63,400 bases of DNA from Eledone cirrhosa. Its lineage: Eukaryota. The position numbers were made by a program, and so were the translations under genes. Location: assembly GCA_964016885.1 (NCBI GenBank), contig CAXHJY010001665.1:1-63400 (forward strand), read 5' to 3'. Shown here one piece after another: positions 1,570 through 51,191 of this stretch. A model generated the notes under the pieces. That model did no database searches and was not told where the DNA came from. It saw only the letters and a list, made by a program, of their open reading frames with translations. Within the stretch, counting starts at the first letter, position 1, and each line of letters opens with the position of its first letter.

Positions 1570-3214
1570 TATATATATATATATATTTATATATATATAT
1601 ATATATTTATATATATATATATATTTATATATATATATATATATATTTATATATATATATATATTTATATATATATATATTTATATATATATATATATTT
1701 ATATATATATATTTATATATATATATATATATTTATATATATATATTTATATATATATATTTATATATATATATATATATATATATATATATATATATAT
1801 ATTTATATATATATATATATTTATATATATATATATATTTATATATATATATATATTTATATATATAGGAACCAGTAAGACCGCGACAGCTGAGCTCAAG
1901 CCGTTTCGACGGCTAAGTCCAGAATTAGCCGTCGAAACGGCTTGAGCTCAGCTGTCGGGGTCTTACTGGTTCCTATTACCCACTCTACTACCTCAAGTAT
2001 TGAGTACTTTGGTGCGTTATGGTCCACCTGGTTCCTTACCACATTTCCTTCGTTATTTATATATATATATATATTTATATATATATATATATTTATATAT
2101 ATATATATATTTATATATATATATATATTTATATATATATATATATTTATATATATATATATATTTATATATATATTTATATATATATATATATTTATAT
2201 ATATATATTTATATATATATATATATTTATATATATATTTATATATATATATATATATTTATATATATATATTTATATATATATTTATATATATATATAT
2301 ATATTTATATATATATATTTATATATATTTATATATATATATTTATATATATATATTTATATATATATTTATATATATATATATATATTTATATATATAT
2401 ATTTATATATATTTATATATATATATTTATATATATTTATATATATATTTATATATATATATTTATATATATATATTTATATATTTATATATATATATTT
2501 ATATATATTTATATATATATATTTATATATATATTTATATATATATATATATATATATATATATATAAAAATATATATATATATATTTATATATATATAT
2601 ATATATATATTTATGTATATATATATATATATATAAATATTTATATATATATATATATAAATATTTATATATATATATATATATATATATATTTATATAT
2701 ATATATATATATATATTTATATATATATATTTATATATATATATATTTATATATATATATTTATATATATATATTTATATATATATATTTATATATATAT
2801 ATTTATATATATATATTTATATATATATATTTATATATATATATTTATATATATATATATTTATATATATATATATATATTTATATATATATATATATAT
2901 ATATATTTATATATATTTATATATATATATATATATTTATATATATATATATATATATATTTATATATATATATATATTTATATATTTATATATATATAT
3001 ATATATTTATATATATATATATATATATATATATATATATATATATATTTATATATATATATATATATTTATATATATCTTTATATATATATATATATAT
3101 TTATATATATATATATATTTATATATATATATATTTTTATATATATATATATATATATTTATATATATATATATATTTATATATATATATATTTTTATAT
3201 ATATATATATATAT
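1570..3214. repeat. Degenerate (TA)n tract with TTTA interruptions, containing a small hairpin element
   Basis: Seen directly. Confidence 0.97.
1866..2056 (+). mobile_element. Short fold-back PLE pLTR remnant (hairpin plus ~80-nt tail)
   Basis: Inverted arms 1866-1916 / 1925-1975 with loop GTCCAGAA. The right arm contains the 3' half of an HHR (GAAACGGCT-TGAGCTC-AGCTGTC). Flanked by (TA)n. Confidence 0.7.
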
Positions 3215-3862
3215 ATTAAACTTTCATTCTCTACCACCCCTAATATTAGTTCTCATTTAGCTAGATCTAACAATAGGAAAATTAGGGATGGATTCTCCTC
3301 TCTACATACTACTAGTCTGAACAGATCCGGCAATGCATTACCACCAGAACAGTCCTTATCTAATAGCAATCCTACGTGTAATGCATCACCACCCGAGTCA
3401 ACCAATAACACCCGGAAGTGCAATTGTAGTGTGAGTGCTAATTGCCCTTTAAACGGTAACTGCCTTTCTAAGAACATTGTCTATGCTTGCGAAGTTATAA
3501 CTAATTCCTCTAATAGAACTTATATAGGCTCTACATCTAACACTTTTAAGACTAGGTTTAACTCTCATATCTCTAATTTCAAGCATGTTTAGTTTAAGAA
3601 TTCTACTTCTTTAGCACATTATGTCTGGGATCTTAAGATAGCTAATTTACCATATAGCCTTAACTGGCGTTTAGTAGCACGCTCTAACCACCTTTCTACA
3701 CATACTAAGTTTTGTAATCTCTGTATCCTCGAGACACACTCTATAATCTTCTCTAGCGCATCTTTACTTAATAGAAAGTCTGAGATATTCTCTTCTTGCC
3801 CCCATGCTATTTCTAATTCATACTTTTATTATAAACCTAAACGTTCTAGTAGTACAAATTGA
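3215..3862 (+). pseudogene. 5'-truncated PLE ORF (linker, CxC...CPLxGxC, GIY-YIG) of subfamily 1a
   Basis: Paralogous to ~8413-9069; in-frame TAG at 3590-3592 replaces AAG. Confidence 0.9.
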
Positions 3863-5598
3863 ACCCATTAGCTGATATATTCCATTATTTATTTTTTAGT
3901 TTAGGTCCTTTTGTTTGCCAACATTATTATTATCATCATTATTATAATTGGTTTTTGATGACTCCTCATTCTAGATCTCATAATCTTTTGGCTACTGTAC
4001 CATATCTGTCTTCTTACGCATTAAATTTTCACTGTTACACCTTATGAATGTATATAAGATTATATATTTTACGCTATTTATTTTATTTTATTCTTATTTT
4101 TATTTTTATCTTTATTCGGATTCCTCTTTTGAACCCCCCCACCCCCCCCCAATGCGCACATAAACTTATTGTCAACCCCTCCAAATTGACTATGATTATA
4201 TTATATTTAACCCCCCCCCCTCTTTACACTCCTTTCTCTTATGTAATATAGTATATCGACAATATTTTATGCCCCTTTGCATCCTCCATACATTTCTTCA
4301 TTTCTGTCCCTATTAGCCTACCTTAATTCTGCTTAAGTCAGTTTTTTAGATATCGTTATGTATATGATAATAAAAAATGTTCATTCCTTTTTGTAAACAT
4401 TTGGAACGAAATATTAACGTTTATAAACTTTAATGACTTAAACTATAGCCAATATTATACTGCCTTATTGGATAGTTTAAATATTTTTAATATTAATTTA
4501 TCAAATAGGGTTTTCGAGTCATTTACAGGGGTTGTTTCCTTAGCTTTTACTTAACTACTTAACTGCATGTGAGACCTAAATGTATACGTTTGTTTTTGTT
4601 TTTTTAATTTCCGGTTGATTCTATTTATTTATTTTATTCTATATTTTATATTTTATATTTTATTTGTAATACTACTGTGCATTATATTTACTGTCTGGCA
4701 CTTACTCACTCATCCATATACATGTCTGTCTACCAACCTTGTAATTATAAGTAATTATATATTATATTGTATTAATTTATTTTATATAATATGTTATATT
4801 ATATTGTATTTTTTATTGTAATATTGATCCTTATTACTTACCGTTAATTATATGTAACATTATGATATGTTAAACTTTATATACCATGTAAGATGTTTGT
4901 ACTTCTGTACCATCATAATTTTTTTTTTAGGTATTTATTTTTCCTCACCTACTCTGTAACCCAATATGAGTACATTGATAAATGTTAGTATATTGTATAT
5001 TGTAAATGTTATTATTATTATATTATTATTGTGACATCTATTTTGTTTGTGTAAATTAACCGGAGATTATCTATTCTATTATATTGTATTATATAGTATA
5101 TAATTGTATTATTTATTATTATATGTGTTACTTATAATTATATCATATTATTACCTCATGTATATTGGGTAGATGTATTAGTATTATTATTATTATTATT
5201 TTCATTCCTATCATGCTTATTTTTATATTCAAATTCTTAATAAGGTTTAATTTGTGCAGTGGAAGATGGATGTGTGTATTGTTGTATGTGTATGTGTGTG
5301 TACGTGTGCGCACATATATACATATGCATATTGTATCTTTTGATTTTTATTGTAATTTTAATGTTGGTAAAGGTATATTATAGTATGTTATATTGTATTA
5401 TATAAAATTCCACCTTTGTTTAGCTCTAGTTTTTGCTTTGGACTATATTTGTAATATGGTTCTTAATGTTATATACATCCTTAGTAATTATTATCATATA
5501 TTTTTATTATATATTTTTGTAATACTTCAGTGTATGTACACTCCATATTCTTCGGAGCTTCCGGCTTGTATCTGCCGATATTACTTCTTGTTGTTTTA

Positions 5599-5643
5599 AT
5601 TGCCCTGATGAGTCCTTAATAGGACGAAAAATTGTCGGCTAAT
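5599..5643 (+). ncRNA. Minimal type I hammerhead ribozyme (subfamily 1a; stem III C>A change)
   Basis: GCC-CTGATGA-GTCCT taat AGGAC-GAAAA att GTC-GGC, followed by AATAAA. Confidence 0.8.
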
Positions 5644-5648
5644 AAAGA

Positions 5649-50100: not shown

Positions 50101-50496
50101 TGTGCTTATGATTTTATATCCACATATATAAATGTGAGTGGGGGAGTGTGTGTGTTTGTATGTTCGTGGTTATGTGTATATTTATGCATATACGCGCATG
50201 TATGTGTGATTATACTGATATGTGTGAGTATGAAAAAATATATTTATATGCTTGACTCCATAAGTATCAATGTGCATCTTATCAGCGCATAAAGCTTACA
50301 GAGATATTAACCTTGAAATTTTGTGTTTGCATCCATCTTTTTAGTATGCGTATACAAATTATACACACATTTTTGTAAAATATGTGTAAGGATTTTACAT
50401 GTATATACACACACCGAACTGCTTTTAACCCTTTGTGTTTTCATTGGTCAATTTTGAACTGATATTTTGAATTGTTGTTATTATCAATAAATATAC

Positions 50497-50651
50497 TTCA
50501 TTATTTCTGAAGACGGCGTATATATGTGTTAGGTATGTATATTTAATCTTGATAATTTGTATAATTTTGTATAATTTTGTACATAGATCTGTTGAATATG
50601 CATACCAATTATAACACATATATACCCTAGAAACGATCGTTAAATAATGAA
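50497..50651 (+). ncRNA. Hammerhead ribozyme with extended stem II (array ends ~50 nt downstream)
   Basis: Identical to 31610-31764. Confidence 0.75.
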
Positions 50652-50997
50652 TTTTTTTGTTTAATATAAGGAATTGTTTATTCATTATTTGTTTAATATT
50701 TTATATAAATATATATATATATAAATATATATATAAATATATATATATATAAATATATATATATAAATATATATATATATAAATATATAAATATATATAT
50801 AAATATATATATATATAAATAGATATATATATAAATATATATATATATAAATATATATATATATATATATATAAATATATATATATATATATATATATAT
50901 ATATATATATATATAAATATATATATATATAAATATATATATATATATATATATATATAAATATATATATATATATATATATATATAAATATAAATA

Positions 50998-51191
50998 GTT
51001 TTAATATAGATGAGATTCTACAGGACTAGAACTGTTTCATTCATTAGAAATCATCATTCCTGATGATTTCTAATGAATGAAACAGTTCTAGTCCTGTAGA
51101 ATCTCATCTATATTAAAACTGTTATACTCTGCTATGTATTGAGTACCTTACTTACTGTGGTTACCTCCGATTCAACCCGGAATAACTAACG
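50998..51191 (+). mobile_element. Short fold-back hammerhead element (family S2, copy 1)
   Basis: Arms ~50998-51056 / 51061-51120; HHR ATTC-CTGATGA-...-GAAACAG...CTGTA-GAAT at 51056-51102; TSD TATATAAATATAAATA at 50982-50997 and 51192-51207. Confidence 0.82.

Follow-up and report, generated by a model that had tools for sequence, protein, structure and literature searches.

A duplicated bulged hairpin and an adjoining UAUA patch at the insertion ends of Hydra-clade Penelope-like elements in Eledone cirrhosa

The window analyzed here is the whole of a 63,400-nucleotide (nt) stretch from Eledone cirrhosa (assembly GCA_964016885.1, contig CAXHJY010001665.1, positions 1 to 63,400 of the forward strand), animal-type DNA with a G+C content of 23.5% in which a long (TA)n tract is packed with nested retroelements. 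Self-comparison of the window revealed five families of Penelope-like elements (PLEs), named A to E, with the motifs CTCTR and ATTGAGY beside an insertion end, two fold-back families lacking the motifs, and two fragments of long interspersed nuclear elements (LINEs). The two motifs pair with each other as the arms of a single conserved bulged hairpin. The features of the five families, including open reading frames (ORFs) encoding reverse transcriptase (RT) and pseudo-long terminal repeats (pLTRs), are as follows.

1868..2052, + strand: family A, a short fold-back insertion in (TA)n; the inverted arm is tail-less and the forward arm has a tail of ~76 nt
Predicted cut after 1956, + strand: 3' half of the family A hammerhead, within 1868..2052
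1982..2005, + strand: family A hairpin 1; 5 nt separate its stem from the tail-less end at 1976; the hairpin is matched by a model built without window sequence, E 1.6e-4
3221-11137: family B, extent from self-comparison
6109..6153 (copy 11047-11091), + strand: family B type I hammerhead in the 5' pLTR; RF00163, 31.7 bits, under the gathering score of 34
6206..6227, + strand: family B hairpin 1; 6 nt separate its stem from the tail-less end at 6199 (used at 11137)
6307..6324, + strand: family B hairpin 2, 101 nt past hairpin 1 and ~53 nt 5' of the ATG
6377..9069, + strand: family B ORF, Hydra-clade RT with C-terminal GIY-YIG; frameshift near 6841-6862
15076..17416, + strand: family C, truncated; the inverted arm (15076-15582) ends tail-less and the forward arm has a 162-nt tail
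17258..17292, + strand: family C hairpin 1 with a 6-bp upper helix; 3 nt separate its stem from the tail-less end at 17254
19436..50703, no single strand: family D, an inverted copy whose tailed end is at 19436, followed by 6.3-kb units in tandem that stop without a tail at 50703
31610..31762, + strand: family D hammerhead-like motif with a long stem II insertion, read by eye; predicted cut after 31754
31822..31902, + strand: family D hairpin 1 with an extended upper helix; 4 nt separate its stem from the tail-less end at 31817
Starts at 38115 and 44416 (+ strand) and 25858 and 19565 (- strand): other copies of family D hairpin 1
31960..32077, + strand: family D hairpin 2 with a loop of ~100 nt; 5 nt separate its stem from the tailed end at 31954
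32107..34548, + strand: family D ORF P0001, intact, 813 amino acids, Hydra-clade RT with GIY-YIG
50998..51191, + strand: family E copy 1, a short fold-back insertion with a hammerhead and a ~71-nt tail
51126..51144, + strand: family E hairpin 1; 5 nt separate its stem from the tail-less end at 51120
57154..57348, - strand: family E copy 2; hairpin at 57215-57197, its stem separated by 3 nt from the upstream tail-less end

No tailed end of family B was present within the window. An earlier note on this DNA had placed the tail-less ends of the five families just upstream of CTCTR, and the coordinates were found to be exact: the last base common to read-through and ending copies is 1976, 6199 (11137), 17254, 31817 (50703) and 51120, CTC starts 6, 7, 4, 5 and 6 nt past those ends, and ATTGAGY stands at 1999, 6221, 17286, 31896 and 51138. 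The ends are less sharp than had been described, each being ambiguous by 1-5 nt or more because the terminal element bases also read as (TA)n. Enrichment of the motif pair over shuffled sequence was confirmed. In 23,244 non-redundant, non-microsatellite bases of the window the pattern occurred seven times versus 0.63 (maximum 4) in 300 local shuffles, and with pairing of the arms required it occurred five times versus 0.03 (maximum 1).

The fold consists of a 4-bp RCUC/GAGY stem, a 2-nt U-led bulge on the 3' side, a covarying upper helix of at least 3 bp and a variable loop. The closing pair is A-U in families A, D and E and G-C in B and C, and spacing between the arms ranges from 11 to 73 nt, the variation being taken up by the loop. 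When tails were folded without constraint the hairpin was obtained in B (in the minimum free energy structure), C and D, in A only as an isolated hairpin, and in E as the basal stem alone. CTCTR and ATTGAGY thus hold as a signal in the window but only as its local form; the conserved core is RCTC...TH-GAGY, and homologues vary in a compensatory manner. Family D has, in addition, a stem II insertion of ~100 nt in its hammerhead and long loops in both hairpins, and seems to tolerate loop expansion while stems are kept.

Homologues were collected by a search with P0001 that returned 116 relatives, from which an alignment of 70 proteins was used to fetch loci. The resulting 90 loci comprised 77 from metagenomes (the best 80 of 332 relatives having been kept) and 13 from prokaryote-labelled assemblies; a scan of viral contigs returned no relatives. 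Fifty-two leaders with 200 nt before the ORF start reduced to 40 non-redundant families. In 31 of the 40 the 200 nt preceding the ORF start contained the strict hairpin, compared with 0.6 in dinucleotide shuffles, 0/40 on the reverse strand and 0/40 inside ORFs. The core defined by sequence alone was present in 37 families, with one copy in 10, two in 26 and three in one. It is located between the hammerhead and the ATG, 31-72 nt past the hammerhead cut site; two-copy spacing is 54-85 nt and the second copy starts 36-68 nt 5' of the ORF start.

In the homologues the bulge opens with U in 63 of 65 instances, and the next base is A, C or U in 57. Covariation was assessed in 43 instances picked without a pairing rule. 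The three upper pairs were paired in 36, 34 and 31 instances versus permuted expectations of 29, 20 and 17 (each p = 0.0002, the floor of the test, with relatedness of the instances ignored), and four to six pair types occurred at positions 2 and 3. The signal was confined to the 2-nt-bulge register; registers 0, 1, 3 and 4 gave none and were rejected. RNAalifold yielded the same fold unprompted from 16 equal-length instances, none of them from the window, which also served to build a search model. Pairing in this model was 98% in register versus 24-66% in slid controls, a comparison that leans to structure because 6 of the 16 instances were chosen for pairing; the 43-instance test is the unbiased one. 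A MAFFT alignment of 61 hairpins had no internal gaps inserted and was left out of model building. The model gave 141 matches in the 90 loci. On the window, hairpins of A, E, C and B were among the top matches, only that of A being strong, and the long-looped hairpins of D were missed. Wobble positions in 81 distinct instances showed G-U on the sense strand nine times (one doubtful) and A-C once (p = 0.02), indicating that it is therefore the sense strand that folds and not first-strand cDNA.

Insertion ends were located by all-against-all comparison of the loci, which gave 59 divergence points no more than 260 nt from an ORF start. Thirteen run on into microsatellite, an independent sign of a genuine junction, and two of these are one duplicated junction, leaving 12. 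For ten of the 12, a called hairpin begins 0-8 nt downstream (binomial p 3e-8 versus a 12% null); of the other two, one stops 6 nt short of a variant hairpin whose closing pair is mismatched, and one lies 11 nt before the hairpin in the cross-family comparison and 5 nt in that with its own arm. Among the remaining 46 rows, judged by eye, eight ends fit and five do not, the rest being repeats, subfamily boundaries or inversion junctions. Overall, hairpin 1 follows the tail-less ends at a distance of 0-6 nt and hairpin 2 closely follows the tailed ends, so that the PLE 'tail' spans the two. The duplication, the second copy that marks the tailed end and the pairing of the motifs had all been overlooked in the earlier note. 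Its proposal of a conserved cis-element 3' of the hammerhead is supported insofar as the element is tied to the insertion end, since in the window the stem is 3-6 nt away from the ends, as against 20-63 nt for the hammerhead cut; the latter spread rules out a fixed distance from the hammerhead as the end ruler.

The prediction of a tailed end 5' of hairpin 2 was borne out in family D at 31954. Restriction-site-associated DNA sequencing (RAD-seq) of three samples carrying the same species label as the best-matching run gave 585, 508 and 662 raw reads (reads, not loci) that leave the element at 31954 into (TA)n, and depth drops approximately tenfold past this position. The tails of families A and E match the hairpin spacing of the homologues. 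The arms of fold-back insertions are unequal, the shorter one stopping just 5' of a hairpin, in 5/5 cases in the window and 7/7 clear cases among the loci, although perfect palindromes may be hidden by short-read assembly.

A UAUA-like patch, 4-8 nt from the stem, adjoins each end and matches the (TA)n target. Of 61 instances, 32 have TATA or ATAT at a distance of 3-11 nt upstream of the stem, versus 13 after within-window shuffling and 10 and 4 in upstream control windows, with a peak 4-6 nt from the stem that coincides with the ends. The patch is encoded by the element, since it is present in read-through copies.

The proteins of families B and D both have an RT followed by a C-terminal GIY-YIG endonuclease. 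In D, YRDD is at 346 and VY..YIG at 693-709; in B the domain order is the same and the Pfam GIY-YIG match is weak. Both contain RWR and DKT (RWK-type motif present, DKG replaced by DKT) with no match to GxK[FY], and the CxCX5C linker, and CxxC and CxH flanking a conserved E and N, occur once per protein, CCHH being absent by eye. Both families are inserted in (TA)n and have a type I hammerhead in the pLTR, that of D recognized by eye only. These are features given for the Hydra clade in the available text of Craig et al. 2021 (PMC8557442), namely an RT with a C-terminal endonuclease and motifs as in B and D, and on these sequence characters B and D are Hydra-clade PLEs. The Naiad assignment of the earlier note was rejected on the C-terminal position of the endonuclease, DKT in place of DKA, and the presence of a hammerhead; Naiads have an N-terminal endonuclease (PMC8557442, available text). 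We infer that families A, C and E, the copies of which are ORF-less or nearly so, are also of the Hydra clade. A hairpin model from Hydra loci matches A clearly and C and E weakly, and family C retains a short endonuclease remnant of which 95 nt resemble the endonuclease end of family B. Thus the common end signal proposed for five unrelated PLE families stands, while their being unrelated does not.

The hairpin is probably an RNA docking element that positions the RT for internal initiation, the nicked (TA)n target annealing to the UAUA patch and hairpins 1 and 2 setting the tail-less and tailed ends, respectively. According to this model, which was built from comparison of sequences, the RT-endonuclease protein would bind the hairpin in RNA, the endonuclease would nick (TA)n, the freed 3' end would anneal to the UAUA patch, and copying would begin there. 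Since copying would start at the patch, the hairpin used would be left out of the insert and, lying outside the copied segment, would act on the template or donor. Initiation at start site 1 would yield the tail-less end and at start site 2 the tailed end, with the inter-hairpin spacer as the tail. Fold-backs would arise if each site primes on a different strand of the target, perhaps with two protein copies per RNA, and the truncated cDNAs are joined; priming of both strands by two protein copies on one RNA is the less secure part of the model. The template would have to be a read-through tandem transcript or a circle made by the hammerhead, since the hairpins lie 3' of the start sites. The model has a precedent in the Poseidon PLE, for which two internal starts bounding the tail, use of both target strands and a requirement for RNA 3' of the starts are described in vitro in the available text of PMC11167929, with RNA required to +172, a main start at +111-118 and a dimer predicted by AlphaFold. 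Among the functions offered in the earlier note, a priming site is the best fit, an endonuclease or RNA-end signal is possible, and an internal promoter fits poorly because the stem covaries and the loop is variable.

More tentatively, the UAUA patch plus hairpin could constitute a minimal telomerase-like module, two of which on a tandem or circular RNA would load two RT-endonuclease subunits priming opposite strands of one (TA)n break. If so, both hallmarks of Penelope-like insertions, the tail on one side only and the inverted arms, would have a single cause in double priming, and any RNA could be made a substrate by a 30-nt tag.

Several results weigh against the docking model. The precedent is from another clade, and the authors of the Poseidon work saw no homology between start site and cut DNA (PMC11167929, available text). 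Of the 40 families, three have no core and the 10 with one copy lack the second. Six published Hydra consensi were inspected by eye; three show the hairpin (one coral and two sea-cucumber families), two are doubtful and Hydra-1_Obim is without it. The basal pair has a probability above 0.5 in just 35 of 61 local folds, and since the four pairs of the basal stem hardly vary, they may have a role at the level of sequence. The five homologous ends that do not fit are L010:2498, L016:2759, L020:2571, L030:2695 and L085:6051. An old copy of family B (3221-5646) is likewise a misfit, ending at 5646. The RAD-seq loose ends listed do not include the family D tail-less end. L081 2184/6023, an apparent pair of tail-less arms, was discounted because it belongs to a larger duplication. 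The 3221-5646 copy of family B is ~80% identical and ends ~10 nt past the hammerhead cut, hard against a younger pLTR; L085:6051 is similar, and such ends possibly represent a second, minor kind.

The ends could instead be fixed in DNA, a hairpin in single-stranded or extruded form being recognized by the GIY-YIG endonuclease and a cut at the adjacent TATA patch resolving the intermediate. The resemblance of the patch to the (TA)n target agrees with this, as does the fact that IS200/IS605 transposases read subterminal DNA hairpins. Further points in its favor, from the available texts, are that Craig et al. credit the tail to endonuclease-mediated resolution (PMC8557442) and that the D. virilis Penelope endonuclease required the tail for plasmid cleavage (as told in PMC11167929). 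The 9 to 1 excess of G-U on the sense strand is contrary to folding of first-strand cDNA but leaves sense-strand DNA unaffected, and the Poseidon mapping shows target-primed starts at the tail boundaries with no resolution step (PMC11167929, available text); overall we regard resolution in DNA as unlikely. Less probable again is a signal for RNA 3'-end processing, in which cleavage immediately 5' of the stem, by a nuclease of the host or the element, would leave an ordinary RNA 3' end for the RT to start from. The tight 0-6 nt distance from end to stem is what a cleavage ruler would give, and Poseidon RNA-seq read ends coincide with the start sites; yet the Poseidon product size was unchanged by the RNA 3' end and downstream RNA was required (both in the available text of PMC11167929). 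Moreover, the hairpin corresponds to no ribozyme or other family in Rfam, as judged from the 150 window matches listed out of 194 and from 8 of the 90 loci, and tRNA-like arms are absent.

A role in expression, as an internal promoter or a protein-bound translational leader element, with the ends set by the UAUA patch alone, has a still lower probability. Its basis is the position of both copies in the 5' leader, hairpin 2 starting at the short distance from the ATG given above, and the internal promoter and regulatory sequence around a 34-bp repeat of D. virilis Penelope (PMC2377424, available text). Compensatory changes and loops of 3 to ~100 nt are unlike a double-stranded DNA element, and AT-rich leaders hold other TA patches, yet ends cluster at the two next to hairpins. 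An expression role could coexist with docking. Chance resemblance in AT-rich DNA, to which the shortness of the motifs and one match of the loose pattern away from ends (15867/15916 with 15939) might point, was rejected by the shuffle, strand, ORF and register controls and by the hairpin in published consensi of other phyla, and is given next to no weight.

The docking model can be set beside other structured RNAs that, bound by their own RT, fix the start position: the bulged stem-loop epsilon of hepadnaviruses, the telomerase RNA template with its alignment region, and the R2 3' UTR (untranslated region). In telomerase RNA a few template bases pair with the primer. Epsilon primes from a protein inside the bulge, telomerase templates repeats, and R2 starts at the RNA 3' end; in the Hydra-clade hairpin, by contrast, the start would immediately precede the stem, and the module comes in duplicate. 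The hairpin gave no sequence or Rfam match to epsilon, telomerase RNA or R2. Telomerase RT is the sister group of PLE RTs (PMC8557442, available text), and for this reason a primer-alignment patch beside an RT-binding stem would bear on the origin of telomerase-style templating.

Poseidon_Ac (Frangieh et al. 2024, PMC11167929) is alike in having two ends that bound the tail, an internal start, a need for 3' RNA and an AT-rich target. It belongs to another clade, and in the available text no conserved or duplicated cis-structure was defined and no primer homology seen; its tail of 30-40 nt lies in the ORF, whereas that of the Hydra clade is ~55-160 nt, lies in the leader and has a hairpin and target-like patch for each end. 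The template given in the methods of that paper contains, by eye, a bulged hairpin at about +121 to +147, right after the +111-118 start, hinting that the principle may reach beyond Hydra. The published Hydra clade (Craig et al. 2021) shares the protein motifs, (TA)n, type I hammerhead, pLTR, tandem and inverted structure and one-sided tail. In the available text of PMC8557442 the words 'hairpin' and 'stem-loop' do not occur and the tail is credited to the endonuclease; most published Hydra families are shorter than 3 kb, as opposed to the 6.3-kb unit and long-looped hairpins of family D. Three 9-mers of the 3' arm gave six matches in the available supplement, where line breaks can conceal others: four in Hydra leaders and two, apparently coding, in the Naiad and Chlamys files. 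In Hydra-1_Ajap both copies are present, and the consensus begins 2 nt before the first. The hairpin shares the pLTR neighbourhood with PLE hammerheads and non-LTR retrozymes (PMC4209133, PMC7229834, bioRxiv 10.64898/2026.07.22.740005), the proposed circular or multimeric RNA template of which would likewise need an internal start; it is a separate element with no catalytic core, undescribed in the available texts of these reports.

The PLE tail, hammerhead and internal initiation are already known; the hairpin, its duplication and the patch appear to be new, no description having been found in the literature searched, which mostly excluded subscription journals, and the figures and GenBank file of PMC11167929 may show a related structure. 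How PLE ends are chosen and why the tail is one-sided have been open questions since the tail was described, and the 2024 in vitro work showed internal initiation while leaving the RNA signal undefined (PMC11167929, available text). A covarying, duplicated hairpin with a target-matching patch names a candidate signal for one clade that is directly mutable, and gives a sharp boundary annotation rule for Hydra elements and their ORF-less derivatives.

The units of the family D array (19436-50703) are near-identical, with intact 813-aa ORFs (three on the + strand and one on the - strand) and a 3.7-kb 3' UTR rich in microsatellite; the array is probably very recent. The family C hammerhead (17168-17207) has a variant core, with C where U is usual and A at the cut site. 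The 13 loci from prokaryote-labelled assemblies (L078-L090) are Hydra-clade PLEs in contigs of GTDB bacterial genome records, most likely animal host contamination of the metagenome-assembled genomes. At L081:6037-6302, L081:6700-7115 and L090:7193-9546, Hydra families are nested in each other's (TA)n junctions, each short fold-back having one tailed and one tail-less arm.

As the earlier note had said, two fold-back families lack the hairpin. One is an inverted PLE-like insertion at 11276-12639 with a one-sided 59-nt tail; it may belong to another clade, perhaps relying on a different signal. The other, S3, is a 343-bp element at 52106-52448 and 61781-62123 with a hammerhead-like core that is unpaired and 3' of the arm, and its arm end looks like that of family E. 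The two LINE fragments both abut (TA)n: positions 1-1567, which we take from their motifs to be the 3' part of a CR1/L2-type LINE, and 53880-56984, presumably on the same basis an RTE-type LINE with an (ATG)n tail.

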